From a virus (taxonomy: Duplodnaviria; Heunggongvirae; Uroviricota; Caudoviricetes), in the IMG/VR virus record IMGVR_UViG_2585427754_000004: 64,000 bases of DNA; one strand, 5' to 3'. Made by a program: the position numbers and the translations under genes. The notes under the pieces were generated by a model that saw only the letters and a program-made list of their open reading frames with translations, had not been told where the DNA came from and did no database searches. Shown in pieces: positions 1 through 61,735 of this stretch (its first letter is position 1; every line of letters starts with the position of its first letter).

Positions 1-568
1 TTCCATCAACAGCGGCTCTGGCGCGTGGATAGATATGCGTAACCAGAACGTCATCTTCGGGAGGAACGCTGTAAGTACAAGCTCTGCACAAGCGTTGTTG
101 AGACAAGACCACGCGGATCGCAAATTCTTCTTGGGTGGCTTGGGAAACAGTCAGTTTGGTTTTTACATGATCAACAACTCACGTACCGCAAACGGCACGG
201 ATGCGAACGCATACCTCCAGAATGATGGTACTTGGGTTTGTGGCGGTAATGGCAGCTTTAATGACGTTTATATCCGCTCTGACCGTCGTAGCAAACGCAA
301 TATTCGCAAGATTGAACGAGCGCTCGACAAGCTGGATCGGATCGAAGGTGTTCTGTACGAGATTCAGGTCTGTGACCGGTATGAGCAGTCTGGCGGCCTC
401 ATCGCTCAGGACGTCCAGAATGTTCAGCCTGAACTGGTAACGGTTGACCATAACGATCAGTCAGGAGAGCCTCGTCTGCGTCTTAACTACAACGGCGTTA
501 TCGGCATGTTGGTCGAGGCTGTCAAAGAGCTGCGCGAGGAAGTGCGCGAACTGAAGGCAAAAATGTAA
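1..568 (+). CDS. Tail fiber protein, C-terminal part with intramolecular chaperone (peptidase S74-like) domain; 5' end outside window
   Basis: Translation contains YIRSDRRSKRNIRKIE and GGLIAQDVQNVQPELV, matching the autoproteolytic chaperone domain of phage tail fibers and endosialidases. Open reading frame runs in from the window edge. Confidence 0.7.
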   Translation, partial: SINSGSGAWIDMRNQNVIFGRNAVSTSSAQALLRQDHADRKFFLGGLGNSQFGFYMINNSRTANGTDANAYLQNDGTWVCGGNGSFNDVYIRSDRRSKRNIRKIERALDKLDRIEGVLYEIQVCDRYEQSGGLIAQDVQNVQPELVTVDHNDQSGEPRLRLNYNGVIGMLVEAVKELREEVRELKAKM

Positions 569-634
569 TCAAGGTGAATGGTGAGGGGCCACCCTCACCA
601 ATTCAGGATATTCACATCAAAAAGGAGATTAGAT

Positions 635-1417
635 GTGCCAATTGTCGGTGTTCCCGGTTGGATTGGGTCTTCGGCTGTCAGTGTGACAGGCCAGAGATGG
701 ATGAGTGCAGCTCGAACGGCGGTGCAATTGTCTGCTGCTGGGAATATGTCTCAGTTAGCAGGTCGTTCTAAGGAAATTCAGTACAGCATCGGTGCGAATC
801 ATAACTACAACAAAGACACACTGATCAACTATTTAAAATCCCAGGGGGCGACGCCAGTCGTTGTTACCATTACAGGGGATCTGGTGTCGTCCAGTAGCGG
901 CGTGCCATGTTTAGATTTCCCGAGTTCACTTACCAACTCTTATATCAGCCTTGTAATCAACGCAGGTGTGACTGTCTATGGACGCGGTGGCAATGGTGGT
1001 AGTAACGCTGCCGGTGCTGCTGGTGGTAACGCAATTAATAATGGCATCGGTACACGCTTGCGTATTACGAATAATGGTGCAATCGCTGGAGGTGGCGGCG
1101 GCGGTGGCGGCGGTAACAGGGGTAAACTAATATTTGGCGGCGGCGGTGGTCGCCCATTCGGTGCTGGTGGGTCTTCCTCTCATATGAGTTCCGGTGCAAC
1201 TGCTGGTACTATTTCCGCTCCTGGTAAAGGATCTGTTGGTGAGGGGTCTCTTAGTGCATATACAGGCGGTTCGGGTGGTAATGTCGGTGCTGCTGGAGGA
1301 AGATGTAATACTCAAGGTAACGGTACAGAATATAACGGCGGAGCAGCTGGTAAAGCTGTTACTGGTAATGCTCCAACTTGGACTAAAGTTGGGGCAATTT
1401 ACGGCGCTCATGTGTAA
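635..1417 (+). CDS. Glycine-rich protein, candidate tail-fiber adhesin or host-range determinant
   Basis: Sits directly after the tail-fiber gene. Several poly-Gly tracts (GGGGGGGGGN, FGGGGGRPFGAGG) separate short variable segments, as in T2-type gp38 adhesins. Start uncertain: GTG at 635 follows AAGGAG by 7 nt; ORF track gives 578. Confidence 0.4.
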   Translation: MPIVGVPGWIGSSAVSVTGQRWMSAARTAVQLSAAGNMSQLAGRSKEIQYSIGANHNYNKDTLINYLKSQGATPVVVTITGDLVSSSSGVPCLDFPSSLTNSYISLVINAGVTVYGRGGNGGSNAAGAAGGNAINNGIGTRLRITNNGAIAGGGGGGGGGNRGKLIFGGGGGRPFGAGGSSSHMSSGATAGTISAPGKGSVGEGSLSAYTGGSGGNVGAAGGRCNTQGNGTEYNGGAAGKAVTGNAPTWTKVGAIYGAHV

Positions 1418-1479
1418 GTACTTACCTACCAAGTGTGGGCGTTTTATGATATAAAACCGCCATCCCGATTTGACGATTC

Positions 1480-2942: not shown

Positions 2943-3464
2943 TTATTCGTCGAACAATTTTTCGATAGATTTTGTAGGATAGAACAAAGAACGCTCGTTG
3001 TTACCAACCAGCTGGATAAAGCCTAAACTTTTATAAAACGCCTTGGCTTTGTCATTTAACGCCTCAACGAAAAGTCCATGAATGCCTACAGCAAGAGATG
3101 CATTGTACACAACGCGCATTGCATGTGTTACAAGCATTGAGCCAAATCCTTGACCTTGAAGGGACTTGTCCAAAGCCAGCCTACCCAAAGTAACACTTGG
3201 AACATTCCGATAAGGAACCTTCTTTTGTTTGCTTCTTGAAGGTAAGGACTCCTTTTCAAAACAACTACCTGACAAAGTGTAATATCCTAACACTTTTGGC
3301 CTTTCTTCTTGAGTGCAAAGCACATAAGCACGAAGAATTTTTCCCTCATGCTGCCTTTTTAAGTGGTTGGCTAAAAAGGCGTTTAGTGACTCTTCGCCGC
3401 AATCAAAACCGTTTAGATCATAATCTTTCTCTCCAGAGAAAATCTCTATCGTTGTATTGCTCAC
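2943..3464 (-). CDS. GNAT-family acetyltransferase toxin (TacT/KacT-like) of a type II toxin-antitoxin pair
   Basis: 173 aa with acetyl-CoA-binding signature QGQGFGSMLV; 7 bp downstream of a DUF1778-type antitoxin gene on the same strand. Confidence 0.75.
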   Translation of the reverse strand: MSNTTIEIFSGEKDYDLNGFDCGEESLNAFLANHLKRQHEGKILRAYVLCTQEERPKVLGYYTLSGSCFEKESLPSRSKQKKVPYRNVPSVTLGRLALDKSLQGQGFGSMLVTHAMRVVYNASLAVGIHGLFVEALNDKAKAFYKSLGFIQLVGNNERSLFYPTKSIEKLFDE

Positions 3465-3471: not shown

Positions 3472-3741
3472 CTACTCCATGCTTTTCAGACGATCAGCAG
3501 CTCGTTTCAGCTTGTCGTTCGGTGCCGGAGGATTGCTTATAGCGTCCATAACCAGATTCCAGGATTCTTCATTCAGAACTAGTCTACGGTGTTGCTCTAT
3601 AACTTTCACGGCACGTTCAGATGCACTGCTAACCATAAACTGAGTAATGCTCTGGTTAGACATTGCGGCAGCTTCCTCGATGATGCTTTTATCGTCATCG
3701 GTTAATCTCAAATCGATGCGCTGCTTTTTTAGTGCTGACAT
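3472..3741 (-). CDS. DUF1778 ribbon-helix-helix antitoxin (TacA/KacA-like)
   Basis: Translation MSALKKQRIDLRLTDDDKSIIEEAA ... NPPAPNDKL is typical of DUF1778 antitoxins. ATG at 3741 (minus strand) preceded by AGGAGG; ORF track extends to 3780. Confidence 0.7.
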   Translation of the reverse strand: MSALKKQRIDLRLTDDDKSIIEEAAAMSNQSITQFMVSSASERAVKVIEQHRRLVLNEESWNLVMDAISNPPAPNDKLKRAADRLKSME

Positions 3742-3752
3742 GTATTCCTCCT

Positions 3753-3779
3753 GATGGCCGTGATGTAGGAAGGCCATCA
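3753..3779. promoter_or_regulatory. Inverted repeat TGATGGCC-N11-GGCCATCA upstream of the antitoxin gene (candidate autoregulatory operator)
   Basis: Perfect 8-bp arms immediately 5' of the antitoxin ribosome-binding site. Confidence 0.35.
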
Positions 3780-4059
3780 ATCTCCTCTGTTCAAACTGAG
3801 TTTTCGACTCAAAAATTACTTTAAAAGGCTATAGCCCATTACGTGTGCATTATCAAATTGTGTACGGCATATCACCGTACTTGTAATATAGATGTCATTG
3901 TTACTTTTTTCAACAGACAAATACAAGCTATGTTTGCCAATTGTTAATCACAACCTACCATTTAACCTTTACACCGCAGCCGTAGGCATTTAGGCTATAT
4001 CACATATAAGAAAACAAGTTGTTTCAGACGATAATTATATACGCAAAGGGAACTCTCCA

Positions 4060-4728
4060 ATGACCAAGATCTTTGTGGTTGGCGGCACAAAGGGCGGGCC
4101 TGGCAAATCCACCGTTGCCCAGCAAATTGCCGTTTGCCTGAAAGTCAAAAAGAAGAAGAAGGTTTATATTACCGATATAGATATTCAGCGCACGACAACG
4201 AGCTGGTGTGAAGACCGTCGACAGAACGAAGACCTTGAGCTGATTCCTTTTGCATACGTTCAGGATGACATCATTAAGCACCTAAAATCGCTTCAGGGTA
4301 GAGCTGAGTTTGTAGTGGTAGATGCTGGTGGCTTCGACTCCGAAATTCAGCGACAAGCGATGCTGATGGCTGACGTTATCATTATCCCGCTGCGTCCTAA
4401 GCGTCGTGATTTGAAATCTTTACGTGACATCGATCCTATTATCGACAATGTTCGCAATGTAAACGATAAAGTGAAGGTCCGCGCGGTCATGAACCAGTGC
4501 CCGGCTTTGCCATCACAAGTGTCTCGCATTCTGGCGGCTAAAGAGATTGTTGAGACGTTTGGAATCGAGTCTGCGCCAGTCAATCTATATAACCGCAACG
4601 TCTATGATGATGCGGAAGAGTCTGGTCGCTCTATCTTTGAAATGACCGGTAGCGAGCGCGACAAAAAGGCGGAAGCCGAGTTTGAAGAATTTGTAGATTA
4701 TCTGTTGAGTCTGGAGGAAGAAGAATAA
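4060..4728 (+). CDS. parA: ParA-family partition ATPase (small type Ib)
   Basis: Deviant Walker A GGTKGGPGKST at the N-terminus; 222 aa; followed by a small RHH protein. Confidence 0.75.
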   Translation: MTKIFVVGGTKGGPGKSTVAQQIAVCLKVKKKKKVYITDIDIQRTTTSWCEDRRQNEDLELIPFAYVQDDIIKHLKSLQGRAEFVVVDAGGFDSEIQRQAMLMADVIIIPLRPKRRDLKSLRDIDPIIDNVRNVNDKVKVRAVMNQCPALPSQVSRILAAKEIVETFGIESAPVNLYNRNVYDDAEESGRSIFEMTGSERDKKAEAEFEEFVDYLLSLEEEE

Positions 4729-5087
4729 TGTCCATGAAAATGGGTGACCTAGCAAAGCGCAAAGAGCCTGATGCACCGGCTAAGAACACAACTCCTTTGC
4801 GCCAACCAGTCAGACCACAGGGACGCCCGACTCGTGGCAAAGAGAAAATTAAAAGCCGCACAATGTCACTGGAGGACGAATACTTCGAACTGCTGGAGAT
4901 GATGAAGTTCATCCCTCGCTTCGAGAAATTCACCCGTTCAGACGTGATTCGCGCAGCCATTTTCCATCTGGCAGAGAAGTCACCGCAGGAAATCGAGGAC
5001 ATCGTGAAACTTAACGAGGCGATCACAGCTGCCGATGTCACGATGCGTACCGATGAAATCAAACGAGAGTTGATGAAAAAAGGTTAA
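4728..5087 (+). CDS. Ribbon-helix-helix partition protein (ParG/ParB-like centromere-binding candidate)
   Basis: 119 aa with basic N-terminal tail and C-terminal RHH-like segment (TRSDVIRAAIFHLAE); start overlaps the parA stop. Confidence 0.45.
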   Translation: MSMKMGDLAKRKEPDAPAKNTTPLRQPVRPQGRPTRGKEKIKSRTMSLEDEYFELLEMMKFIPRFEKFTRSDVIRAAIFHLAEKSPQEIEDIVKLNEAITAADVTMRTDEIKRELMKKG

Positions 5088-5092
5088 AAATC

Positions 5093-5123
5093 ATGCATTG
5101 GCGCGTACATTGCGCCAATGCAT
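5093..5123. terminator. Perfect 12-bp inverted repeat between the convergent partition and GIY-YIG genes
   Basis: ATGCATTGGCGC-gtacatt-GCGCCAATGCAT. Confidence 0.5.
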
Positions 5124-5139
5124 AACTACAGTGTCAGCT

Positions 5140-5907
5140 TTATGCCGCGCTAACACTATGTTCAGTCCTAACCACCCCAACCTTCACAAAAGGGCTACCG
5201 TAGCTTGGTGGTTTCTTGATTAATTTGCCTACATACAGTTTTCTAATATGCTCATCGGCTATTCTGCCAACAAATTCATAACGTTTTGTGTCGGGGCCAA
5301 GAGCTATATCCCTTGTAAAGTACTGCTGAGAACCGGCTTTGACCCAGCATTCAATCCGATAAACTTCCATTATCAGCCCACCATATGTAGCGTAGGCATA
5401 TTTGAGATTCTCGTCTCTTGGAACCTTTGCCCATACGCCACGCGTAGCTTCATATAATGCCAGAGCGGACATTCCTGACTTGTAGGTGCTGTTTAGCAGG
5501 AAGGCAAGACCGGCGTGCTCAGGAGCAATTTCAGTTTCCTCTTGCAGCACTAAGTGATGGTAGGCGTCCAGTGATATTCTGCCCATCATGGAACCACTTC
5601 CTCGTACCTTATTCGTAAGCTCTCCGACCCCCATAAGGTCGATGCATGTCGCCTCAACAAGTTTGGCTGTGGTTTCATCCATACCATGACGAAGTATATC
5701 TATGCCTAATTTTTTATTAGCCAAAAGTTCTTTGATCCGCATGGATTTGGGAGAGTCATCGGGATACTTGATGTGATCGAGACAACGAGTCGATTTGCCT
5801 TTTCCTATGTAAAACGGTCTTTTCATCTTGTCTTCTGTATCATAGAGACAGTAAACATAGTATTTAGCCTTATCCAATGATCTCGCGTATACCGATAAAT
5901 CGTCCAT
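5140..5907 (-). CDS. GIY-YIG domain protein (homing-endonuclease-like or other nuclease)
   Basis: N-terminus YYVYCLYD ... PFYIGKGK ... R ... H matches the GIY-YIG fold. Opposite orientation to its neighbours. Confidence 0.45.
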   Translation of the reverse strand: MDDLSVYARSLDKAKYYVYCLYDTEDKMKRPFYIGKGKSTRCLDHIKYPDDSPKSMRIKELLANKKLGIDILRHGMDETTAKLVEATCIDLMGVGELTNKVRGSGSMMGRISLDAYHHLVLQEETEIAPEHAGLAFLLNSTYKSGMSALALYEATRGVWAKVPRDENLKYAYATYGGLIMEVYRIECWVKAGSQQYFTRDIALGPDTKRYEFVGRIADEHIRKLYVGKLIKKPPSYGSPFVKVGVVRTEHSVSAA

Positions 5908-6017
5908 TATTGCATCTCTTAGCTACTGACTAATGCGTTCTATTTTACACATAAGTTTTTAATCAATTTAACAGGCTCAAAGTGTAGAGCTTCTGGGCGT
6001 CTAAGACGACAAGTTAT

Positions 6018-6075
6018 GCCTGCTTCTGTATATATATAAATAATAAGTAACTTATTAAATATATACGGAAGCAGG
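6018..6075. repeat. AT-rich palindromic element of about 58 bp, copy 1
   Basis: GCCTGCTTCTGTATATAT ... ATATACGGAAGCAGG with AATAAGTAACTTATT at the centre; a near-identical element occurs at 51287..51345. Confidence 0.6.
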
Positions 6076-6182
6076 TCTTTTAAAAGACACCACCAGAACA
6101 AGTCCCTTCCGTTTCCACTTCCAAAAACTGCCACCAGTCGCTATCATCCGCTCATTGTGATAAGTAAGTAACTACCTACCAG

Positions 6183-6932
6183 GTGAGCCACATGAGCCAA
6201 ATCTTTTTCGATACCATCGACAACGACCAGTACGACTTCATGACAGAGTGGAATACCGCTGTTATGGACAAGTGGGTCGCTGAAAACATTGGTTTGTCGC
6301 GCTGTAAAGATGAGGCTGAACTCTTCGAGACGAAGTGGTTTGATTACCGCGACATGCATCCTCTGATGGCCACCTGTCTATTTACGGAGGCATACAAACG
6401 TCAGTACTCAAATATCATGCTGACGCACGGTCGCGAACACTTTGAAACAGCTCCGTTCACCACCGGGTTAAAACGCCTGCCTTATCAGGAGTTGTCGACT
6501 GCCAATAAAACGTCGCTATGGAAAGCACGCCAGTTTGCGGATCGCTATTGCTGCTCATACGACTACTTTATCTCCACCGTTCTTTCCGCAGCTGCACGAC
6601 GGCTGTGGGACAAGCTGCCGCGTCCGCAGCATTTGTGGCAGCCAGAACTGATTGAGATATTTGAAGATAAATTAGCCAGACGCGCAACAACCCGTCTGGA
6701 TGACTCTCTGGTTAGCTTTAAGCATATGGGAGACATGCAGTTCAACCCGATTCAGGAAAGCTATTTTGAGTGGATTCTGGAGCGTTTGCGCACCATCCCC
6801 CGCAGCAAGCGCATACGCGCAATTTTCTCCGCTATCTGGCTAATGGAAATCGTTCCAGAGCGCCTTATTTCCGCCCACTTTCCAGAAGAACTGGAAGAAG
6901 CACGGCGGTTTATTGATCCCCTATCTAATTAA
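6183..6932 (+). CDS. Hypothetical protein (immediately upstream of the helicase)
   Basis: 249-aa ORF with upstream TAAGTA palindrome motif; no recognisable motif. Confidence 0.35.
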   Translation: MSHMSQIFFDTIDNDQYDFMTEWNTAVMDKWVAENIGLSRCKDEAELFETKWFDYRDMHPLMATCLFTEAYKRQYSNIMLTHGREHFETAPFTTGLKRLPYQELSTANKTSLWKARQFADRYCCSYDYFISTVLSAAARRLWDKLPRPQHLWQPELIEIFEDKLARRATTRLDDSLVSFKHMGDMQFNPIQESYFEWILERLRTIPRSKRIRAIFSAIWLMEIVPERLISAHFPEELEEARRFIDPLSN

Positions 6933-6975: not shown

Positions 6976-8316
6976 ATGACCGAACTTTGCCATACAGGAC
7001 GCGGGCTGTCCGAAGAGTTTGATGAAGATTTTCAGAACAGATTGACGGCCTATTTTTGTCGTGATCACGAGTTTCTTACTCGTGCTGGAGATCTGGTTGT
7101 ACCTAGCCAATTTGCCAATGCGGCCAATGCCATATTGGTTAATATGGTTTCGGGCTATTACCGTATGTACAAGAGCGCGCCCTCTTCATCTGCGATTCTG
7201 GATATGCTTAAGCGTGCGAAACGCGATAAGACTATCCGTGAGGAACTATTCGCCGATGTTGTTGCTGCGTTTAAGCGCATCCTTGCAGAAAAATTGTCTG
7301 ATACCTCGTACATGGTTGACCAGGTATCAACCTTCGCAAAAAGTGTAGCGTTTGATGATGCTCTGATTAAGGCTGCTGAACTGAAAGAGAAAGGCGACTT
7401 TCAGGGGGCGATGGCAATCATGGCCAAGGTTCAGCAGATTGGATCGAACGAAGCGACCGGAATCTATGACTACTACACCTCCGCAAGTGAGCGATTGAAG
7501 GCGCGTGAATATGAGGCTTCAGAGGAGTATGTGCCAAACAGCATTACAACTGGACTCCCTCTGCTCGATAGGTTGCTGTACCAAAAAGGCTGGGCGAAGC
7601 GTGAAATGGTGCTCTTCATGGGGTTCGCTAAATCCGGTAAATCGACCGCAATGGGTGAGTTTTCCATAAACGCAACACTTGCTGGCTACAATGTTCTGTA
7701 TCTCTCGCTGGAGGTTCACACCACCATTTTATCCGACCGTTTTGATGCAAGATTGTCGGAGACAGAAATGTCCAAGCTGGTGGAACGGCGCGATGAGGTT
7801 CATCGTAAGTTGGCAGAGTTGGGAGCCACGAAGGGGATTGGTAGTTTGTGGGTGGTTGAGCGTCCGTCAGGAAGTATGTCACCGGCAGATCTGGACCGTA
7901 TGCTTAACAGCATGAAAGCCAACGGCATGGTACCTGACATGGTTGTTGTCGACTACGCAGATTTGATGCGTGCCAGTTATGACCTTCGTGATGATCGCGC
8001 CAACATTCGTAGTATCTACACCGATTTACGTGCTCTTTATGACAAGCATAACGTTGCTGGGATCACGGCATCGCAGACAAACCGTGAAGGTGGCGCGTCA
8101 GAAGTTGCCACAATGATGCACGCTGCCGACAACATCGAAAAAGTACGTATTGCTGACCTGGTAATAACGATCAACAAAACCGAAGAAGAAGAAGCGAAAG
8201 GAGAGGCTCGTCTCTACTTTGCTGGTTCACGTAACCAGCAGGGAGGGATCAGCATTCGCGTTAAACAAAACCTCGAACAAATGCGCTTCATTGAGCGAAT
8301 CTTAGACGTTACCTAA
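6976..8316 (+). CDS. DnaB-family replicative DNA helicase
   Basis: Walker A GFAKSGKST, Walker B VVVDYADLM, RecA-like C-terminal domain; conserved upstream AAACAAnTTGTTT motif and shared translation-initiation sequence. Confidence 0.7.
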   Translation: MTELCHTGRGLSEEFDEDFQNRLTAYFCRDHEFLTRAGDLVVPSQFANAANAILVNMVSGYYRMYKSAPSSSAILDMLKRAKRDKTIREELFADVVAAFKRILAEKLSDTSYMVDQVSTFAKSVAFDDALIKAAELKEKGDFQGAMAIMAKVQQIGSNEATGIYDYYTSASERLKAREYEASEEYVPNSITTGLPLLDRLLYQKGWAKREMVLFMGFAKSGKSTAMGEFSINATLAGYNVLYLSLEVHTTILSDRFDARLSETEMSKLVERRDEVHRKLAELGATKGIGSLWVVERPSGSMSPADLDRMLNSMKANGMVPDMVVVDYADLMRASYDLRDDRANIRSIYTDLRALYDKHNVAGITASQTNREGGASEVATMMHAADNIEKVRIADLVITINKTEEEEAKGEARLYFAGSRNQQGGISIRVKQNLEQMRFIERILDVT

Positions 8317-48951: not shown

Positions 48952-48960
48952 GGAGTTCTG

Positions 48961-51286: not shown

Positions 51287-51345
51287 AGCCTGCTTCTGTA
51301 TATATAAATAACTACATATTAATTATTAATATACGGAAGCAGGCT
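51287..51345. repeat. AT-rich palindromic element, copy 2 (also a likely terminator)
   Basis: AGCCTGCTTCTGTATATA ... TATACGGAAGCAGGCT followed by TGTTTTA; near-identical arms to the element at 6018..6075. Confidence 0.6.
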
Positions 51346-51427
51346 GTTTTATATCAGAGACTCCCAGACCTGAACACCACTACAGAATCCACTAGAACCC
51401 CTTCCCAGACGCTTTAAAATCGATTTT

Positions 51428-52854: not shown

Positions 52855-53002
52855 TAAGTAAGTGTTTACCTATCATTTTAAATCATGTATCTTATCGGCG
52901 TCAGGATGACAATGTGTCGGTAAGACACAGTTCCAGGATGGAACGAGAAAGGCGGCTGGCAATCGCCAGCCGCAACTCTTTCTGACACTGGATGGAGTCC
53001 AC

Positions 53003-53497
53003 ATGGCACGTCAAACCTATTTCACTTCTGCAACTAAACGTCCTCGTTCACTACGTCAAATTTTGGCCGAATTATTTAGCGGTCGTGTTCTGTCACGTCT
53101 TGATGAACTGGAGACTACCGTTCGGTTGCTGAATGAACGTTTAGATAAGCAAGCGTCAGTTGTTGCGAACGTGGGGGCGATTGTTACCTCTGGTTCTTCA
53201 CACCAAGCGAAAAATGCACGGCCTTTAGTGAAGGAGAAAAACAACAAGGACAGTTCGAATGGAAAATTTTCAAAGAAAGAGGCTGAAACCAATGGCCTAC
53301 GTTCTCATTATAGTTTCACTGGCGACGGTAGCTGTTCCAGCCGGCCAGAGCCTTTTGATGCCGGATTCATCCATCACCACACCTCCGTCGACGACAATTA
53401 CCACCACTCCAGTAGAGCGTCCTGTCACTCTGGATGGGATGACGGTGGATGCGATACCTCAATTTCATCCAGTTACTCAGGATCATGTTGTGACTAA
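53003..53497 (+). CDS. Hypothetical protein (frame conflict with 53292..53510)
   Basis: N-terminal 90 aa look coiled-coil; C-terminal part is Ser/Cys/His-rich and overlaps a second frame that encodes a signal-peptide protein. Confidence 0.25.
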   Translation: MARQTYFTSATKRPRSLRQILAELFSGRVLSRLDELETTVRLLNERLDKQASVVANVGAIVTSGSSHQAKNARPLVKEKNNKDSSNGKFSKKEAETNGLRSHYSFTGDGSCSSRPEPFDAGFIHHHTSVDDNYHHSSRASCHSGWDDGGCDTSISSSYSGSCCD

Positions 53498-53506
53498 GGC
53501 GGTTGT

Positions 53507-53695
53507 ATGAACTTGTTTTCAAATCACTTTGGAAAAATTTGGCTGGCAATTCTGGCCCTCATGGCCGCCGGTTGGGTATCGAACATTATAAAACTTGTTT
53601 GCTCTGGCGATCTCCAGTTTCAGGCTGGCATGACCTTGGCTCGTGTAGTTGGGGTTTTTGTTTTTCCAGTCGGTTCGGTACTTGGTTATTTCTGA
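53507..53695 (+). CDS. Small membrane protein
   Basis: 62 aa, two hydrophobic segments. Confidence 0.3.
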   Translation: MNLFSNHFGKIWLAILALMAAGWVSNIIKLVCSGDLQFQAGMTLARVVGVFVFPVGSVLGYF

Positions 53696-53788
53696 CGGCT
53701 GTTAGTGCATATGCATTGACCATCTTTGCGTAAGCAATTTATGAAACTATAAAACAACTTGTTTTGACAAATAACAAAAGGAAAACAC

Positions 53789-54214
53789 ATGTTAGGTTTC
53801 TTCAAAAAGAAAACTCGTAAAGCTGTTATCGAAGTCAAAAAAATGGAGAACCGTGATGCGGTTGAGGCCACCGTGTGGGGCGCGTACATGATCTCCTATG
53901 CCGACGGCACATGTGACGCAAAAGAAATTGCCATTCTTGAGAAGACAATTGCAGCTCTGCCTGCGTTTTCTCCGTTTGCTGGTGAAATTGCCCAAATGAG
54001 CGCCAATATCCGTGCTCGTTACGAAGCGTCCCCTCGTTCTGCTAATGCACAGGCTATTCGTGAGCTGTCTGATATTGCGGGTACTCCAGAGGCGGTCGAT
54101 GTTCTGTGTCTGTGCCTTGATATTGCCGATCAGGACGGCATTGGCGAACAAGAAGAGCAGGCACTTAAAAAGATCGCCCAGGCGCTTCAGTTGTCACTGG
54201 ATGCTTATCTCTAA
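53789..54214 (+). CDS. TerB-like domain protein
   Basis: MLGFFKKK ... ISYADGTCDAKEIAILEK ... CLCLDIADQDGIGEQEEQALKKIA follows the TerB two-repeat pattern; conserved upstream motif. Confidence 0.45.
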   Translation: MLGFFKKKTRKAVIEVKKMENRDAVEATVWGAYMISYADGTCDAKEIAILEKTIAALPAFSPFAGEIAQMSANIRARYEASPRSANAQAIRELSDIAGTPEAVDVLCLCLDIADQDGIGEQEEQALKKIAQALQLSLDAYL

Positions 54215-54374
54215 TGCTTGAGAGATTCCGGCTTGTGATCGTCATTGCTCTTCTGGTGATGGCGGTGTTGGTGGATTTTACGGGAAAGATGATGTCTGTC
54301 ATTTCTGATGGCGTCCTCATTGGTCTGGCGATCTACTTCGCTTATCCGCTAGTCCGTAAAGCAACGTGTTAATG

Positions 54375-54403
54375 ACAAGGGCCAAATGGCCCTTGTGTTT
54401 CGT
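54375..54403 (+). terminator. Rho-independent terminator
   Basis: ACAAGGGCC-aaat-GGCCCTTGT followed by GTTTCGTT. Confidence 0.6.
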
Positions 54404-54511
54404 TGACCGAAATAGAGAGTTTGCACCTTTACGTTTAGCTTGCTCCCCTTTTATGCCACATCACAATAAAGCCAATAAGAAAACAACTTGTTTAAGCATT
54501 AGGAAAAACAC

Positions 54512-55081
54512 ATGTGCAAGAAATGCAAAGCGATAGCTGATGAACAAAACGCCTTATTCGAAGAAATGGATGCTAATGAACTGGTCAAAATGTTAGCCAT
54601 TCTTCGAGGAATAGAAGACGTTTCCATATTTGAGAGAGTGGTTACAGCACTTAATTTTGAGTCCACCTTTGAAGAGCCAACTCAGGTTGTAGCTTTAGCA
54701 CATCATTTCGGTGTTCATTATCTTGCTGAAAAAGAGCGCGCTGATAAGTTGCAGGCGACTTTGGATATGGTGAGCGAGACTCAACGAACTGATGACACTA
54801 ACAAGAGTGAGGCGATTATTGCCAGCAAAGATCGTGAAATTGCTGGGCTTAAATCCTCTCTAACGATGTTGATGTCTGCGTTCAATCTTATGTCTTCTCA
54901 GGCGGGTTATAAAATGCCATCACTAAACAGCGATGATCCGATGGCCGTTCGTCAGCTTTTGGGAGCAATGGCCGACCAACTCGACGACACAAAGAGTCGG
55001 CTTGAAGACATGATGCGTGAGTTAAGCCATCGACATAACCTCGCAACACAGCCACACAAAGCCTTTCAAAGCTCTAATTGA
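54512..55081 (+). CDS. Hypothetical protein
   Basis: 189-aa ORF with conserved upstream motif. Confidence 0.35.
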   Translation: MCKKCKAIADEQNALFEEMDANELVKMLAILRGIEDVSIFERVVTALNFESTFEEPTQVVALAHHFGVHYLAEKERADKLQATLDMVSETQRTDDTNKSEAIIASKDREIAGLKSSLTMLMSAFNLMSSQAGYKMPSLNSDDPMAVRQLLGAMADQLDDTKSRLEDMMRELSHRHNLATQPHKAFQSSN

Positions 55082-55136
55082 TCTGATATGGCCGCATGAT
55101 CGGCCATATTGTGTTGATAAAAAACAAGGATGAAAA

Positions 55137-55418
55137 ATGGCATACGGTACAGGGATTTACAACAATAAAGGAATTAACGTTACTGGCTTCCTTACTCCTA
55201 TTTTTTTTCTTGATCGATTTACTGCGTCATCAGGCTCTAAGACGTACTCCAATCCGCCACCGGGTAAATCGCTACATGCCGTGTGGTCATTGATGCCTCT
55301 TAACAACGACAACTACATTAATTTACCTGTTCCAACAGTTACTATTAATGGAAATACGGTTAGTTGGTCAAATTTATATACGGGGCTTGGTTCTTACATA
55401 TACACATACTGGGGATAA
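55137..55418 (+). CDS. Hypothetical protein in low-GC segment (contains T8 tract)
   Basis: 93-aa ORF; T8 at 55201..55208; 3' end overlaps the next ORF by 55 nt. Confidence 0.3.
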   Translation: MAYGTGIYNNKGINVTGFLTPIFFLDRFTASSGSKTYSNPPPGKSLHAVWSLMPLNNDNYINLPVPTVTINGNTVSWSNLYTGLGSYIYTYWG

Positions 55419-56035
55419 TTATGTTCGGGATGTCAATTACTCAATCAGATGGAAGTTTGTGGATGAGTCCAGAATTTACTCCGCAAAATCTGATTAATAA
55501 AGGGACAATGTCTACATCTAAAGGTTCTGTTTTTCAAACATCAATCCCATCAAACAAATCATGTTTTTTTTTCATAAAAAGCAGTAATAAGGCGAACATG
55601 ATGTTTATTCATGAGCATAGTAACGGATACAATGCTCTCAGATTGCATCAGGTAAATGGTAGCCCCGGAACAATAACAGTTTATGCTTTTTCTGATATGG
55701 TGTTACCACATTCTGGCTATGGCATTGCCATGTATAACAGCGCAGGCGCAATGGTGTATCACGGTGAGATGATGCCCCTTGATGCGAAACTTATCACTAT
55801 TTCTGACCCTCAATTTACAATAGATATGGGGTATCCATGTGCGGTAATGCCTGCTATGGTTGGGGTATATAACTATAGACGAACCGATTACGACAGACCT
55901 GTCTATGTAACAATGACAGGTGCAACTGGAAACCAAGTATATAACGGTCAATGGTATTCCGGTAATGTCACATGGGATATTAAGAAGATTTATACAAACA
56001 AAATTCTGGTGATAAATACCTCCAAGTATGATTAG
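55364..56035 (+). CDS. Hypothetical aromatic-rich protein in low-GC segment (contains T9 tract)
   Basis: 223-aa ORF; T9 at 55564..55572 encodes CFFF. Confidence 0.35.
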   Translation: MVKFIYGAWFLHIHILGIIMFGMSITQSDGSLWMSPEFTPQNLINKGTMSTSKGSVFQTSIPSNKSCFFFIKSSNKANMMFIHEHSNGYNALRLHQVNGSPGTITVYAFSDMVLPHSGYGIAMYNSAGAMVYHGEMMPLDAKLITISDPQFTIDMGYPCAVMPAMVGVYNYRRTDYDRPVYVTMTGATGNQVYNGQWYSGNVTWDIKKIYTNKILVINTSKYD

Positions 56036-56138
56036 CCAATGCCTTTATTTGAACGATTGCCTGTTTATTTCTATTTAGTACCTTTTCATTTTTGAAATAA
56101 TTGCACCATTAAACAAATCACTTCTTAATGGTGCAATT

Positions 56139-57824
56139 ATGAATACAGCCCTTTCCATCATCGACGATGCCAACTCAAACACTGCTATCGACTATCGGCA
56201 GGAAATGAACGTCATCCACGAAATTGTGGCCGAGTGCGAGAAAGAGATCGCCTTCATGTATCAGGTACACGACTTCGTTTATGGCGACGAACGCCACAAC
56301 ATGATTAATCGCCTGCTGAGACTAAACCATCGACCAGATGAAGATCGCTCGCGTTTAAATCGAGGTTGGTTGGATAAAGTCGATCTGGAATGGGTGAAAC
56401 AGAATATTTGGGCCGAGTACTGGAGTAAGGTCACGGACATGACTAACGTTTTGCTGATCATGCCAGCTTCCCGTCGAGATGAGTGGCGCGAGCAGTTTAT
56501 AGAGGGCAAACAGGAAGTCATCAAAACTGACAGAACCGGCTACCAGATGAAGGTTAAAGAGTTCGTTGGTGTACCGGAGTTCAAAGCAGAAACGGTCATA
56601 CCCACGATGCTTAATTTGCTGAATGACAGGCACAAATATCTCTCTGAGCGCGTGTATGGCTTGTTTAAGGCGCTGAGTCCTGCGCACAAGACAAATAAGA
56701 CAAACGGTTTCAGCGAGCGTCTGATAATCGCTGACTGCATTTCTGATTTCTGGCGGGACAGCGTTAGCGTGAACTATCGCAAAGAGGACTACATCGACGA
56801 TCTGCGTGTCTTGCTTCATTTCTTCGCGCACAAAGAATTTATTACCATCAACCGCACTGCTGAGGTGCTATCAGCTGCGTATCGAGCAAACGACTGCCAG
56901 ACCGGTGACTGGATGAACGTCGATGGAAATCTGATGCGCGTGAAGATGTTCAAGAACGGCAACGTTCACTTTGAAATACATCCTGACGTGGCCTGGAAGT
57001 TGAATGAGGTGCTGGCTTACAGTATGCCTGCTGCAATCCCCGCGCCATGCCGAACTGCGCCAAAAACACGGGCACCAAAGCAGTTCGGGTTAATCCAGAA
57101 GACGATCTCCGTGCCGGTTCGCACTGCGCTTCGTGACGGGCGATTGAGCAAAGACAAAGGCGTATGGTACTTCTCTGATTCAGCTCTCCAGAAGTCGCAG
57201 GTGGAAGAGCTTGAGCGCACACTGAGCTTCATTGGCGGCGTGCAGGAGAAAAAGCACTGGCAGTTCCCGTATGACATCGGCCATACGCTAAATACGATTG
57301 TGGCTACCGGTTTAATACCGGATACAAAATCACACCAGTTCTACCCTACCCCACGCTTGATTGCTGAGTACGTTGCCAGAGCCACTGAATTGAAGCCTGG
57401 TGAGAAGCTGCTGGAGCCTCAAGCCGGACGTGGGGATCTTCTGGCCTATATTAACGCCGATCTGGAAGATGTTACCTGCATAGAAATCGCACCTCTCTTC
57501 GCTGATATCCTGCGTGGAAAAGGGTATACGAACACGATTTGCTGCGACTTCATAAAGTGGTCTGAGGACAACGCAGGTTATCAGTTCGACAAAATCGTTA
57601 TGAACCCGCCGTACTCGCTTGGTCGTCATAGAGAGCACACGCTGGCTGCGCTGGGGCATCTGAAAGTCGGCGGGCGTCTTGTAGCAGTATTGCCGGGCAC
57701 TGCGCCAATACTGGACTGGATGACGATGGATAATTACGTTTATGCCAGAGGGAAGTCGTTTACCAACGAGTTTGAAGACACAGGGATCACAGTCAGCGTA
57801 TACGTTTTCAAACGCGTTAAATGA
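56139..57824 (+). CDS. Large protein with C-terminal SAM-dependent N6-adenine methyltransferase domain
   Basis: Motif I LEPQAGRGDL followed by motif IV MNPPYS in the C-terminal third; about 370-aa N-terminal region of unknown function. Confidence 0.5.
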   Translation: MNTALSIIDDANSNTAIDYRQEMNVIHEIVAECEKEIAFMYQVHDFVYGDERHNMINRLLRLNHRPDEDRSRLNRGWLDKVDLEWVKQNIWAEYWSKVTDMTNVLLIMPASRRDEWREQFIEGKQEVIKTDRTGYQMKVKEFVGVPEFKAETVIPTMLNLLNDRHKYLSERVYGLFKALSPAHKTNKTNGFSERLIIADCISDFWRDSVSVNYRKEDYIDDLRVLLHFFAHKEFITINRTAEVLSAAYRANDCQTGDWMNVDGNLMRVKMFKNGNVHFEIHPDVAWKLNEVLAYSMPAAIPAPCRTAPKTRAPKQFGLIQKTISVPVRTALRDGRLSKDKGVWYFSDSALQKSQVEELERTLSFIGGVQEKKHWQFPYDIGHTLNTIVATGLIPDTKSHQFYPTPRLIAEYVARATELKPGEKLLEPQAGRGDLLAYINADLEDVTCIEIAPLFADILRGKGYTNTICCDFIKWSEDNAGYQFDKIVMNPPYSLGRHREHTLAALGHLKVGGRLVAVLPGTAPILDWMTMDNYVYARGKSFTNEFEDTGITVSVYVFKRVK

Positions 57825-57884: not shown

Positions 57885-58589
57885 ATGAACAACCTCCAGT
57901 TAGAGCATTTTAACGTCACAGGCCATTCTGATTTTCCTTTCAAGTTTACATTGAAAGGTTATGCAGAGGATGCGGTAGGCCAGATCATTATTGATAAAGG
58001 CATCGTTAAGTTTGAGGGGGATTTTGATGAATCCGCGAAAACATTCATAGACTTCGTTGCCAAACGTTGGAGCGAGCAATGGAAAGACCTGGAAAAGCGC
58101 GCTAGTGAGTTTGATCGGTTCATGGATGCAATGGATACAGCAAAAGAGGCTCTTGCTGCCGGGACTCCGTTAGATCTGGAGTCACTTTTCAACGGCGAAG
58201 TGGCCTCTGCGATGTTCGCCACCATGTTCGCGGGTGAGTTCGTCCGCAGCGGTGCCAAAAACTACCTTGAGCTGGATTACAACGTCCCTGCAATTGGCGA
58301 TTTCGTCGTTACCATCCAACGCAAAGAAGGTAAGACGCCAGGTGAACGCGTCGCAGAGCTTGAGGCCGTTGTGGATCAGCGTAACGGAGAGTGTGACCGT
58401 TTGATCAACGAGCTTCATGCACTTCGGGAAGAAAGAATATGCGCGGGTAGCAATACACGTAATGCAGCGGATATCTACTTCCAGTTAGTTGAGGAATGCC
58501 AGATTCCACCAGGCGGCTCTCTTGTCGATTACGTCAGACATTTAATGACGGAAGTTAACTCCAGCCATAAAGATGGTGAGGTGCGCTGA
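57885..58589 (+). CDS. Hypothetical protein
   Basis: 234-aa ORF with AAAACACATG initiation sequence. Confidence 0.35.
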   Translation: MNNLQLEHFNVTGHSDFPFKFTLKGYAEDAVGQIIIDKGIVKFEGDFDESAKTFIDFVAKRWSEQWKDLEKRASEFDRFMDAMDTAKEALAAGTPLDLESLFNGEVASAMFATMFAGEFVRSGAKNYLELDYNVPAIGDFVVTIQRKEGKTPGERVAELEAVVDQRNGECDRLINELHALREERICAGSNTRNAADIYFQLVEECQIPPGGSLVDYVRHLMTEVNSSHKDGEVR

Positions 58590-58969
58590 TGTTTGGCATT
58601 GACGCACAGCGTGTAGCCGCTTTTGCAAAAAGCCCTCTTGATAATCCCTTGTCTCGTAGTGAGCAAATGGAGCTGGCAAGGCTTTTTCTTCACATTCAAA
58701 AACAGGCAGACATTTTCAATAACATGCCTAATCAACCTATTCTGGATGGTCACATCCAGATGGTCATTAACAGTCATGAGAAAGGCTGGGCTGCAATCGT
58801 CCCCTGCACAATTACATACAAGTTGGCGAAAGAGGTTCAAGAGTTTCGAAAAGCCAGTGTCGAATCGGAGTCTACCAAAGCCGCAATAAACACTCTTATT
58901 CGCATGGGGTTCACATGGACCGGTGGAGCCTACTGGCAAGCACCTCAACCCATTTTATCCGGCAATTAG
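58589..58969 (+). CDS. Hypothetical protein
   Basis: 126-aa ORF, start overlaps previous stop. Confidence 0.3.
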   Translation: MFGIDAQRVAAFAKSPLDNPLSRSEQMELARLFLHIQKQADIFNNMPNQPILDGHIQMVINSHEKGWAAIVPCTITYKLAKEVQEFRKASVESESTKAAINTLIRMGFTWTGGAYWQAPQPILSGN

Positions 58970-59107
58970 GCGCTACAAATCCTTCTGCATGAATAAATAA
59001 AGGCCATAAGTTATGGCCTTAAATAAATTGTTTTCTACCTTTTCTTATTTGTGAAAATAAACCAGCACTTGGTAGTGCTTATGTAACAGCAAAGAAGAGA
59101 AAAACAC

Positions 59108-59659
59108 ATGAGTAACAAAATCGAAAATCCCGTAGTTCTCATTCACAAGCGCGAGAACCACGACTCCTATGCGGTGGCGATCACCAATGGGAGTCACGAT
59201 TTTTACGATGGCCTGCTAATGGCCTCAGTGTCGCCTGATGAGGCAGATAACTCTTTTGCCGTCTTCGCTATGGTTGGTTACTACATGGCTGCCGAAATTG
59301 AGAAGTTGCGGGCGCAGAGAGACGCATTAGCGGCGGAGAATGTGGCATTGCGATCTAAGGCTGCGGAACTGGCACATGAAGCGTCAAAAATTTACTCGGC
59401 ATATAACGCCACTATCACAGAGCCTGACGGGGATTTTATGGACATGCAGACATTGCATGAAATGCAGTGCATAGAAACTCCAGCCACCGATGCTTTTCTG
59501 GCTGAAGTACGTGCGCAGGGCGTGGATATGGCTCGTAACGCGATGATTGATTTTGTTGATGGTGAAGTTGGGCCAAACAAGAACGTTCCGGGGCTGATTA
59601 GAGGCGCAGAGATATGCGTAAGTATTGCTGAACAGCTTCGCAAAGGAGGCAACCAGTGA
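59108..59659 (+). CDS. Hypothetical protein
   Basis: 183-aa ORF with AAAACACATG initiation sequence. Confidence 0.35.
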   Translation: MSNKIENPVVLIHKRENHDSYAVAITNGSHDFYDGLLMASVSPDEADNSFAVFAMVGYYMAAEIEKLRAQRDALAAENVALRSKAAELAHEASKIYSAYNATITEPDGDFMDMQTLHEMQCIETPATDAFLAEVRAQGVDMARNAMIDFVDGEVGPNKNVPGLIRGAEICVSIAEQLRKGGNQ

Positions 59660-60732
59660 GCAAGATTGACTATCAGGCACTGCGTGAAAAGGCAGAGAAA
59701 GCAACGTGTGGCGAGTGGTCGCTAGAATATGGAGATGGCAGATTTGATGGTGATGATGCACTAATTCATCGCGAGGCTGCTGGATATATTCCCATTTGCA
59801 GAATTGAAGGAGCGCATCCTGAAAGCGGTTTCGATGAAGATTTCCAAATGGAGCAGCAGGCCAATGCTGAATTCATCGCCGCAGCCAACCCGGCTACTGT
59901 GCTGGTATTACTGGATGAACGGGAAAGGAACCAGCAATACATCAAACGCCGTGACCAGGAGAACGAGGATATTGCGCTAACGGTTGGGAAGCTGCGCGTT
60001 GAGCTGGAAGCCGCAGAGAAGCGCATTGCTGAACTGGAGTCACTGATGGAACCAAAGTTACCGCAGCCAGCGGTGGTTGACAACGATAAGTTCCGAGCGG
60101 ATTTTGAACGGTGGATGGTTGAGGATGAAAAGTGCATCGTAGGAAGCTCTGACCCTTATCCAGCTGGGATTGAGTCACGCAACTGGAGAGCATGGAACGC
60201 CTGCCGCGCCGCCATGCTTCAGAGTCAAGATAGTGGCATTAAGGATAGCTGGATAAGCTGTAGTGAGCGAATGCCTGTAATCGGCGAGCTAAATTGGAGA
60301 ACTGGTTTTCCTTTGCTGATTACGTGTGAGATCGGCGTTATACCAGCTTATTACGGCTTTGTGAGCGTTAATGGGGGTAAGCATTATGGTTTTATGGAAA
60401 GTTTTAAATACGGAGACGATAACGGCAACCATCCTCAAACTAATGAATATGGTCTGATTAGCAATGTCACACACTGGATGCCACTACCAGAACGCCGCAG
60501 GAGTCGAACAGTGAATAATGCAGAGTTATTTCAGAAAATATCGGCTCTCGCGACTGAATGCCACGCTATAGCATCTGAGCTTGATGTTGGCGATGAACGA
60601 ACCGAGATGTTCGAAATATACAGTGTGCTGCGCAATCTCTGTCGGCGTGGCTACGCCACTCAAGTAGGGCGAATGACTAACCCACTACTCTCATCCTGTG
60701 ATGAGGATGACTCGGATGAGGATGACGAATGA
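59656..60732 (+). CDS. Hypothetical protein with central coiled coil (possibly Ead/Ea22-like)
   Basis: 358-aa ORF overlapping neighbours; coiled-coil segment LTVGKLRVELEAAEKRIAELESL. Confidence 0.3.
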   Translation: MSKIDYQALREKAEKATCGEWSLEYGDGRFDGDDALIHREAAGYIPICRIEGAHPESGFDEDFQMEQQANAEFIAAANPATVLVLLDERERNQQYIKRRDQENEDIALTVGKLRVELEAAEKRIAELESLMEPKLPQPAVVDNDKFRADFERWMVEDEKCIVGSSDPYPAGIESRNWRAWNACRAAMLQSQDSGIKDSWISCSERMPVIGELNWRTGFPLLITCEIGVIPAYYGFVSVNGGKHYGFMESFKYGDDNGNHPQTNEYGLISNVTHWMPLPERRRSRTVNNAELFQKISALATECHAIASELDVGDERTEMFEIYSVLRNLCRRGYATQVGRMTNPLLSSCDEDDSDEDDE

Positions 60733-61112
60733 TGCATAAATCAGTAGCCGGTGAGTTTCAGAAGGAAGTCGATAATACCACTGATCTATTGGACGATATT
60801 TTAAGCATTCTCGCGCTGCTTGAGGCTGGCGATTGGTCAGAACATTGCACTAAAACAGAGCTAGGCGGTCGGCTTGAAAGAGAGATTACACGACTGATTA
60901 GCGATGCCCAAAATGATTTGTCACCTGAGCATCTCCCCTGCGATGTAGTTCTTGTGCCAGGGATGAGGATACACGAAGGCGTCAGAACGAAAACATTATT
61001 AACCGCATTACAGAGAAGAGCCGAACTAAGCTCGCGGATAAAGTTGATGCCATCCAAAATATTTGATGTCGTCAAATTTACGCCATCGCAACATACCGAG
61101 AGAGATAAATGA
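60729..61112 (+). CDS. Hypothetical protein
   Basis: 127-aa ORF, translationally coupled to neighbours. Confidence 0.3.
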   Translation: MMHKSVAGEFQKEVDNTTDLLDDILSILALLEAGDWSEHCTKTELGGRLEREITRLISDAQNDLSPEHLPCDVVLVPGMRIHEGVRTKTLLTALQRRAELSSRIKLMPSKIFDVVKFTPSQHTERDK

Positions 61113-61735
61113 GCACGGTAGCGAAAGATCTCACAGAAGATATTCTCAATGAAATTATTGCTGGTGCAAATACCTCGCTTGAGCAACTTCTTGCGTTAGC
61201 ACTGAGAGCCGAACGTCGAGACAGAAATCGTTTTTATGAGCGATTACCAGGGAAGCGACCAGATAGATCGGATGAAGAAGGTTGCGATATAGACTACATG
61301 GAGCCTTCAGAGATTTATCAACTTGGTAAAGATGACGGCTGGAACGCTTATCACGATGCTGTGATGAAGTTGGATGAAAAAGTTAAACCTCTTTCTCGAC
61401 CGGTAGATCACGGTTTCCGCGATAACTGCGAATGCTCTAGTTGCCAGACCACGGCCCGTATTTGTTCCGAATTGACAGATAAGTCCAGCCTAATCTACGA
61501 AGTTAATGTAGGCGGTAATACATGGGTCGAATGCACAAGAGCTGCATACGTAAGAGCAAAAGACAAGGGTGAATTAACCAGAGTTGTTACCAATCACCCA
61601 AATAATGAGCTTAAAGATCACCAGATTCGAGAACTGGTGAACGAGTTGAGAGATATTGCGGTTCAGTACCACGGAACGCAGCAATTGCGGGAGAAGATTG
61701 CCAGAGCAGTGAACAACTCAGTCCGTAAAAAATAA
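61109..61735 (+). CDS. Hypothetical protein (last gene of the co-directional block)
   Basis: 208-aa ORF followed by a hairpin at 61753..61777. Confidence 0.3.
   Translation: MSTVAKDLTEDILNEIIAGANTSLEQLLALALRAERRDRNRFYERLPGKRPDRSDEEGCDIDYMEPSEIYQLGKDDGWNAYHDAVMKLDEKVKPLSRPVDHGFRDNCECSSCQTTARICSELTDKSSLIYEVNVGGNTWVECTRAAYVRAKDKGELTRVVTNHPNNELKDHQIRELVNELRDIAVQYHGTQQLREKIARAVNNSVRKK

Follow-up and report, generated by a model that had tools for sequence, protein, structure and literature searches.

A 64 kb virus record as a very probable internal segment of an SSU5-supergroup phage-plasmid of the pLF82/Cyrano lineage

The virus record IMGVR_UViG_2585427754_000004 (Caudoviricetes) includes a 64,000 nt stretch of DNA, hereafter the window, in which genes for plasmid maintenance stand beside tail-fibre, lysis and replication genes of a tailed phage. 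What kind of element carries this combination, and where does it reside in its host? A first-pass annotation, made from the sequence alone, had proposed a phage-plasmid of the P1/SSU5/pHCM2 type. Phage-plasmids were recognised here as by Pfeifer et al. (2021), that is, by plasmid replication and partition genes and phage functions on one replicon, and the window holds RepA with iterons, ParA, a tail-fibre tip, a Gp38 adhesin, an endolysin and Rz in one 64 kb stretch. It is, with high confidence, an internal segment of a temperate siphovirus of about 105–115 kb that is kept as a low-copy circular plasmid in E. coli, a phage-plasmid belonging to the SSU5 supergroup, in the pLF82/Cyrano lineage. 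Elements of this type are ordinary and already described, and there is no novelty in the phage-plasmid nature of the window.

The window was cut in three and the segments compared by megablast with GenBank phages and PLSDB plasmids. All of it is collinear with SSU5-type plasmids and phages of E. coli at 97–99% identity. The plasmid matches (E. coli, E. albertii and E. marmotae; 105–120 kb, 97–99% identity) are predicted to be non-mobilizable. Among phages, the best matches are Cyrano, CMS-2020a and PhiR41_1; Salmonella phage SSU5 matches at about 78–83%. By blastn, Cyrano/pLF82 aligned over 60,182 of 64,000 bases (94%) at 98.4% nucleotide identity, pSLy3 over 50,737 (79%) at 96.5% and SSU5 over 46,195 (72%) at 78.1%. 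SSU5 homologues were found for 65 of 90 mechanically chosen open reading frames (ORFs), in strict order between SSU5 positions 25222 and 85204 and mostly at 70–98% amino acid identity. SSU5-type coverage of the three segments was 37–86% by megablast, and the shared, persistent gene arrays (replication, recombination and nucleotide metabolism) are those by which the SSU5 supergroup is recognised. That supergroup has been defined as phage-plasmids, mostly IncFIB (PMC7969092), and tyPPing gives size ranges of 85–134 kb for the pSLy3 type and 94–126 kb for SSU5_pHCM2. In a surveillance preprint, 1,377 clinical isolates out of about 66,900 had SSU5-group elements.

The genes themselves are well preserved. 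Cyrano has 77 coding sequences in the homologous stretch, and 73 of these were matched in the window, with no in-frame stops and most at full length; the exceptions to full length are RecA (which lacks an intein here), three genes of the ea22 region, CYRAN_40 and the apbC homologue truncated at the window edge. Nearly all long ORFs lie on the plus strand, and the cumulative GC skew climbs steadily along the window. No insertion sequence (IS) elements or transposons were found in the window; some relatives carry such elements. Because the same variants occur in further E. coli plasmids that cover the window (94–98% coverage in its first 25 kb, 100% in the later segments), no variant cassette looks unique to it; the tail-fibre tip and the GIY-YIG cassette described below were each directly confirmed in other plasmids.

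Whole-sequence comparison with phage-plasmids at the nucleotide and protein levels, which the first-pass annotation had called for, thus places the window in line with Cyrano, pSLy3 and SSU5. Of the families it had named, the SSU5 branch stands, on collinearity and a plasmid-only distribution, and the P1 group falls away. Membership of the P1 group was rejected, as no P1-group record is present among the matches listed for any segment, and the phages among those matches with coverage above 3% in the first 25 kb are all of SSU5 type. P1-like single genes do occur in the window (HumD, TciA/B and a Cra-like gene).

The replicon is centred on repA (33844–34899, minus strand), which encodes a predicted iteron-binding replication initiator with matches above the cutoffs to both Pfam Rep3_N (WH1, 1.3e-10) and Rep3_C (WH2, 1.3e-4). 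The protein is identical to Cyrano RepA and shares 91% of its amino acids with SSU5_069. The iteron core CTNYAGHGGWT has 15 matches in the window against 1.3 expected, a number reached by none of 100 shuffles, and 14 of the 15 lie at 33410–35421; a looser scan found 23 iteron-like sites at 33362–35541. About 12 iteron-like repeats, in both orientations, were located by repeat scans downstream of repA (33359–33842), and by analogy these may form an incA-like copy-control locus. The same scans showed the origin region on the other side (34937–35560) to consist of two homologous modules about 380 bp apart, which are diverged tandem copies of one another. In each, an iteron array of 21 bp spacing (34937–35062 and 35344–35443) is followed by short, GATC-containing repeats and a DnaA box. 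In module A, the 21 bp-spaced iterons are accompanied by a consensus DnaA box (TGTGGATAA, position 35174); in module B, iterons are accompanied by six GATC sites at 35484–35541 and a second DnaA(-like) box (AGTGGATAA) near 35547. A stretch of 80% A+T (35250–35299) separates the two arrays. The duplicated origin module is also seen in SSU5, judging by the collinear matches.

In the P1 (oriR/incC-repA-incA) and RepFIB (F-type) replicons, iterons likewise stand on both sides of the rep gene, and the origin carries a DnaA box and GATC sites. Since the layout matches these replicons, we infer that replication would be of the theta type and dependent on RepA and DnaA, with copy number limited by the extra iterons.

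The same replicon is not found throughout the family. The repA/iteron stretch is 99.9% identical in NZ_CP149811.1, a circular, non-mobilizable plasmid of 108,916 bp typed as IncFIB, while many SSU5-like E. coli plasmids, pSLy3 and an O104:H4 plasmid among them, align with no more than the first 53 nt of 33300–35600. The initiator of pSLy3 is a RepB-family protein (rep_cluster_488), and pSLy3 has no counterpart of window positions 33353–35453. Because pSLy3 shares the backbone yet has a different initiator, the replicon is, on sequence comparison, an exchangeable module that is swapped as a cassette, the backbone being conserved elsewhere. The authors of the pECOH89 study also noted that RepA differs among members, with only 48% identity to that of pLF82 (PMC3999498). 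As to subgroup, SSU5_pHCM2 or pSLy3, the backbone of the window is nearer to pSLy3 and its replicon is of SSU5/pLF82 type.

A small Walker-type partition ATPase, ParA (222 aa; 4060–4728, plus strand), is recognised by Pfam (MipZ, AAA_31 and CbiA) and by NCBIfam ParA_partition, in the latter case below the cutoff (E 1.9e-33; 115.7 bits, cutoff 180). The Pfam matches begin at residue 2–6, and the protein is without an N-terminal DNA-binding domain, as in type Ib (ParA/ParG-like) partition systems. It is 99.6% identical to the ParA of Cyrano and 91% to that of SSU5. The start of the following gene (4728–5087, plus strand) overlaps the parA stop by one base, and its 119 aa product is the presumed centromere-binding partner. 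The partner is 100% identical to that of Cyrano, and homologues were found only in SSU5-like plasmids. Its N-terminal ~45 residues are basic and conserved, and are modelled with low confidence as unstructured, followed by helices; a strictly conserved core, SRTMS-x-EDE...FTRSDVIRAAI, comes after the N-terminus. The partner likely has a ParG-like role. A sub-threshold, 21-bit match to the aCcr1 family, which we take to be ribbon-helix-helix (RHH) proteins, is the sole hint of an RHH fold; comparison with ParG (1P94) by hhalign gave a probability of 0.1. The AlphaFold2 model of the partner has a predicted local distance difference test (pLDDT) score of 63, and a Foldseek search of the PDB with it found nothing. 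The ParA/RHH pair of the first-pass annotation therefore stands for ParA, while the RHH label of the partner was not supported by the Pfam, PDB and ParG comparisons. The partner is labelled 'RelE/ParE' in Cyrano, a label that neither Pfam nor NCBIfam supports. Near parA, the only repeats are a 14 nt two-copy repeat upstream and a perfect 12 nt inverted repeat (5093–5123) that could equally be a terminator.

On the minus strand just before parA lies a toxin–antitoxin pair, as had been reported. The predicted toxin is a GNAT acetyltransferase of the TacT/KacT type (2943–3464; Pfam Acetyltransf_7/_1/_10), 99.4% identical to Cyrano KacT, and immediately upstream of its gene is that of a TacA-type antitoxin (3472–3780; Pfam TacA1, 8.6e-26). 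The two genes are 7 nt apart, the arrangement expected of a type II TacAT/KacAT system. In the LF82 lysogen, KacT is expressed at 35× the local background (PMC9928086). Another pair of minus-strand genes (26212–26436 and 25588–26187) is labelled HicA/HicB in Cyrano, an identity that was set aside, as neither gene has Pfam or NCBIfam matches.

If the element were an integrated chromosomal prophage or a genomic island, these plasmid genes would be relics. A tyrosine integrase gene is present (15554–16657) and neither end of the element lies in the window, both of which would fit integration. Yet, among 5,426 complete E. coli genomes, 243 carry the repA/iteron region, with 286 plasmid locations and no chromosomal one, and the records that hold it are of about 100–140 kb. 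The tip region of the adhesin gene, present in 38 of the 5,426 genomes, is on plasmids in 37 of them, and the close relatives are circular records of 105–120 kb. Intact coding sequences for RepA and ParA are found together with the iteron arrays, so the decay of the replicon and Par genes envisaged by the first-pass annotation is not seen; the maintenance genes are not remnants, because their Cyrano counterparts are matched without an in-frame stop. Chromosomal integration was rejected on the count of 0 chromosomal against 286 plasmid matches and is extremely improbable. A different proposal accepts the plasmid but not the phage: the element would be a defective, phage-derived cryptic plasmid, kept by RepA, ParA and the toxin–antitoxin pair, and this copy would give no infectious virions. 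Members of the family, such as the S. Typhi plasmid pHCM2 and pECOH89, are often reported as cryptic plasmids, the tyPPing paper lists a pSLy3-type element that is not packaged into virions, and the free virions of Cyrano are about 100-fold fewer than those of the most active LF82 prophage (PMC9928086). The structural and packaging half also lies outside the window. Because the terminase, portal, major capsid, tape-measure and tail genes of NZ_CP149811.1 lie on the remainder of its sequence, outside the homologous stretch, this module is placed beyond the left-end tail fibre, and it sits upstream of that gene in both NZ_CP149811.1 and pSLy3. Set against a defective plasmid are the window genes with Cyrano counterparts, lysis cassette and tail-fibre tip included, which have no in-frame stop, and the lack of IS elements and transposons that distinguishes the window from some relatives; we consider a defective plasmid unlikely.

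A temperate phage-plasmid is the better description, and the behaviour of Cyrano is consistent with it. Misson et al. renamed pLF82 as the phage-plasmid Cyrano and measured 5.5 copies per cell (PMC9928086). DNase-protected Cyrano genomes, quantified by qPCR, rose up to 32-fold above the plasmid background, induction by ciprofloxacin was 39-fold, and siphovirus particles of matching size were seen by electron microscopy (PMC9928086). The lysogen expresses the genes for the repressor, KacT/antitoxin and the ParA partner, CYRAN_29 (PMC9928086). Virion production has been shown for the 98.4%-identical Cyrano only. Several points weigh against the phage-plasmid interpretation. Neither end of the element falls within the window, which also has no host DNA and no genes for the head, tail shaft or packaging, and the circularity, extrachromosomal state and completeness of this copy are taken from its relatives. 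The ParA partner had no Pfam match at E ≤ 1 and no PDB match, whether searched by sequence or with an 11-sequence profile, and no convincing centromere repeat array was found at 3700–6200 around parA. The Cyrano toxin labels HicAB and RelE/ParE are without Pfam support at E ≤ 1, and handcuffing, dimer resolution and the role of the repressor, as proposed below, follow by analogy from P1/F-type replicons.

Cyrano, known as plasmid pLF82 of E. coli LF82 (OV696614/NC_011917/CU638872), has the same gene order as the window. The RepA, ParA partner, helicase, SbcD, NrdB, DHFR and HumD proteins of the two are 100% identical, and they have in common the replicon, toxin–antitoxin pair, partition genes, integrase/repressor pair and lysis cassette. 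Differences are confined to cassette-like regions. At the tail-fibre tip (1–1413), the window encodes an S74 C-terminus and a T-even-type Gp38 adhesin, and Cyrano a P1 S-like fibre. At 5086–6008, a minus-strand GIY-YIG/PD-T4-3-like gene is found in place of CYRAN_30; at 13953–14427, the window has an additional tRNA-Tyr, the tRNAs of Cyrano being Asn, Thr and Ser only; and CYRAN_43 is absent (15322–15404). RecA has an intein in Cyrano and none in the window, dnaE diverges at 23407–23617, and the ea22 region is rearranged (60012–61399).

Genes for the replisome, for recombination, for nucleotide metabolism and for lysis are common to the window and pSLy3 (CP015915), the type element of the E. 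coli 'pSLy3' phage-plasmid group, as are the GIY-YIG gene, apbC and the integrase/repressor pair. Neither the GNAT/TacA pair nor the cspA region is present in pSLy3, whose type I restriction-modification system and group II intron are in turn missing from the window. Salmonella phage SSU5 (JQ965645/NC_018843) has the same repA/origin layout, and its proteins are close to those of the window (RepA 91%, ParA 91%, DnaE 93%, tail-fibre C-terminus 97%). It is without the GNAT/TacA pair, the integrase and helix-turn-helix (HTH) repressor pair, three of the four tRNAs, cspA, humD and apbC, and its adhesin is different and shorter, with only the N-terminal attachment domain in common. Like the window element, P1 further encodes a ParA-type partition system, an addiction module, a tyrosine recombinase and a homologue of HumD; the element differs in being a siphovirus, not a myovirus, and in having its own DnaE replisome.

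At the left end of the window, the ORF of the tail-fibre gene (1–568, plus strand) is open from base 2, so the gene is cut by the edge. Its 3′ end encodes a C-terminal intramolecular chaperone domain (Pfam Peptidase_S74, 7e-12) that is 96.6% identical in amino acids to the C-terminus of the SSU5 tail fibre. The next gene (578–1417, plus strand) encodes a Gp38-type tail-fibre adhesin, a receptor-recognising protein with Pfam scores of 238 bits for GP38 and 55 bits for Gp38_N. This adhesin is a chimera. Its head (767–1392) has 87.6% nucleotide identity to the adhesin from a virulent T-even phage, PaulHMueller, its match to SSU5_022 is limited to the N-terminal ~38–40 residues (Gp38_N, 60% identity), and the junction falls at the boundary between the Gp38_N and GP38 domains. 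This suggests that virulent myoviruses and temperate phage-plasmids have recently exchanged host-range modules.

The lysis cassette follows on the plus strand. A holin candidate (1480–1815) is 95% identical to the 'Holin' of Cyrano (phrog_5093), from which its function is assigned, and has a single, C-terminal hydrophobic helix. The endolysin (1802–2521; phrog_873, 1.7e-87) is 98.7% identical to that of Cyrano. It ends in a hydrophobic helix (IIFGIATIVVAGFIAWSQV), and the translation suggests a C-terminal membrane anchor. An Rz-like inner-membrane spanin (2523–2774; phrog_1026, 7e-25) is 100% identical to Cyrano Rz, and the end of its gene is overlapped, in another frame, by that of an Rz1-like outer-membrane spanin candidate (2695–2910) with a signal peptide and an ISGC lipobox. 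The final 39 residues of this candidate are identical to Cyrano Rz1, and since the signal peptide and lipobox lie in the longer ORF only, the start of the Rz1 gene is probably upstream of the one given for Cyrano (equivalent to 2791). The tail fibre and spanins named by the first-pass annotation were thereby recovered, as were the four tRNAs, the DnaE-centred replisome (DnaE, DnaB-like helicase, primase and ligase by Pfam) and the iteron/RepA replicon.

The replication genes are spread along the plus strand. A DnaB-like helicase (6976–8316; DnaB_C, 100% identical to Cyrano) and a DnaG-like primase (8326–9579; DNAG_N/Toprim_2, 98.9%) are followed by an ATP-dependent DNA ligase (10966–12288; DNA_ligase_A_M). 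Then comes a cluster of tRNA genes (13876–14529) for Asn(gtt), Tyr(gta), Thr(tgt) and Ser(tga) by ARAGORN, three of which (Asn, Tyr and Thr) are confirmed by Rfam at the gathering threshold. A CobT-like VWA protein and an AAA_5 (CobS-like) ATPase (17601–21040; CobT_C/CobT and AAA_5), conserved in SSU5, precede the gene for a DnaE-type DNA polymerase III alpha subunit of 1172 aa (21221–24739; DNA_pol3_alpha, finger, HHH_6 and PHP domains). DnaE is 93% identical to that of SSU5 and 93.5% to that of Cyrano, against 98–100% for most neighbouring genes. A patch of about 210 bp within dnaE (23407–23617) gave no nucleotide alignment with Cyrano. Its divergence suggests a recombination patch.

Genes for a UvsY-like protein, a gp32 single-stranded DNA-binding protein (SSB), a 5′–3′ exonuclease and a RecA-like recombinase lie at 26691–30615 (Pfam gp32, 5_3_exonuc_N and RecA; Cyrano annotation). 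RecA (29542–30615) is intein-free, while Cyrano and several plasmids have a Hint/LAGLIDADG intein of about 1.26 kb at the position equivalent to ~29733 of the window. Beyond the replicon are genes for an SbcD/SbcC-like nuclease and a RuvC-like resolvase (36542–41085, plus strand; Metallophos, AAA_23, SMC_N, SbcC_Walker_B and Cyrano annotation; 100% identity). A nucleotide-metabolism block (41159–49518, plus strand), identified from the Cyrano and RefSeq annotations, encodes NrdA, NrdB, a MazG-like protein, ThyX, polynucleotide kinase, DHFR, an ATPase and an epsilon-like 3′–5′ exonuclease; it is 97.8–100% identical in amino acids to Cyrano and collinear with SSU5. The following block (50672–57824, plus strand), with PADLOC methyltransferase matches, includes a Dam-like methylase (50672–51265) and an RNase H (52180–52854), a DUF4942 methyltransferase (56139–57824) and TciA/TciB-like genes.

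The remaining genes are mostly regulatory or accessory. The tyrosine recombinase noted above (15554–16657, plus strand; Pfam Phage_integrase) is 99.2% identical to that of Cyrano and absent from SSU5. Because SSU5 does without it and no integrated copies were seen, it probably resolves plasmid dimers rather than integrating the element. The adjacent, minus-strand gene (16652–17038) encodes an HTH protein (phrog_8 transcriptional regulator; weak Pfam HTH_19) that is a candidate repressor for the lysogenic state, and the Cyrano homologue of which shows 10× background expression in the lysogen (PMC9928086). A variable slot after the partition operon holds the GIY-YIG gene (5140–5907, minus strand; Pfam LEM-3_GIY-YIG; PADLOC PD-T4-3, 1.6e-23), a candidate PD-T4-3 single-gene anti-phage defence. 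An unrelated gene fills this slot in Cyrano and the same gene in pSLy3. A cold-shock gene of the CspA family (25018–25436, minus strand; Pfam CSD, 4e-33) is preceded by a full cspA thermoregulator 5′ untranslated region (Rfam RF01766, 185.7 bits); the gene has no annotation in Cyrano, and SSU5 and pSLy3 lack it. The Rfam scan of the window gave only this thermoregulator and the tRNAs. A variable ead/ea22/DUF551 accessory region (57885–61735, plus strand; Pfam Ead_Ea22 and DUF551) is partly unlike that of Cyrano.

The end of this region at 61735, where the first-pass annotation had closed the element, is not a boundary. A HumD (UmuD′-like) gene (62537–62926, plus strand; NCBIfam HumD 219.8 bits, cutoff 120), whose product is 100% identical to CYRAN_98, and a gene for an ApbC/Mrp-type P-loop ATPase (62964–64000, minus strand; Pfam ParA (NUBPL), 342 bits) follow, and homology to the relatives continues to base 64000, with no element end in the window. 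The latter gene is cut by the window end and lacks its first 22 codons; its product corresponds to residues 23–366 of CYRAN_99 at 100%. Both genes are part of the element in Cyrano, pSLy3 and others. The Cyrano annotation 'LexA-like peptidase S24' refers to a HumD-family protein, as in phage P1.

A life cycle can be proposed from this arrangement. The anatomy, domain content, intactness and distribution of the genes come from the present analysis, and the roles assigned to them in the cycle are drawn partly from the related Cyrano. In the lysogen, RepA would bind the 21 bp-spaced iterons upstream of repA and, together with host DnaA (one consensus box), open the adjacent A+T-rich, GATC-rich origin. 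The ~12 iterons downstream of repA may titrate or handcuff RepA, keeping the copy number low. Segregation of the plasmid copies would fall to ParA and its small, basic partner, the GNAT/TacA pair would act as an addiction module that penalises plasmid loss, and the tyrosine recombinase would probably resolve dimers instead of integrating. The HTH protein (16652–17038, minus strand), the likely repressor, would keep the lytic genes silent. Upon DNA damage, the element may switch to its own replisome of DnaE, DnaB-like helicase, primase, ligase, gp32 SSB and exonucleases. Lytic replication would also use the T4-like recombination set of RecA, UvsY, SbcCD and RuvC, and would be backed by the element's own supply of deoxynucleoside triphosphates (NrdAB, ThyX, DHFR and MazG) and its tRNAs. 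Packaging would depend on the head and tail genes outside the window, and lysis on the holin, endolysin and Rz/Rz1 at its left end.

As a discovery the window carries little weight, SSU5-type phage-plasmids having been catalogued by the hundred. Its use is in annotation: the window is securely identified, the element extends past both of its ends, and weak spots are flagged in the Cyrano annotation, namely, the labels RelE/ParE and HicAB, the start of Rz1 and the 'LexA-like' protein that is HumD. More tentatively, this copy may be a recent recombinant between gene pools commonly regarded as separate, with an adhesin head like that of a strictly virulent T-even myovirus on an SSU5-type attachment domain and a PD-T4-3-like gene by the partition operon; as part of the same speculative view, the ParA partner might represent an undescribed family of centromere-binding proteins, and the duplicated origin might provide separate origins for the plasmid and lytic modes. 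If the adhesin and the PD-T4-3-like gene both work, SSU5-type phage-plasmids would be exchanging modules for host range with virulent phages and at the same time equipping their host to resist these phages.

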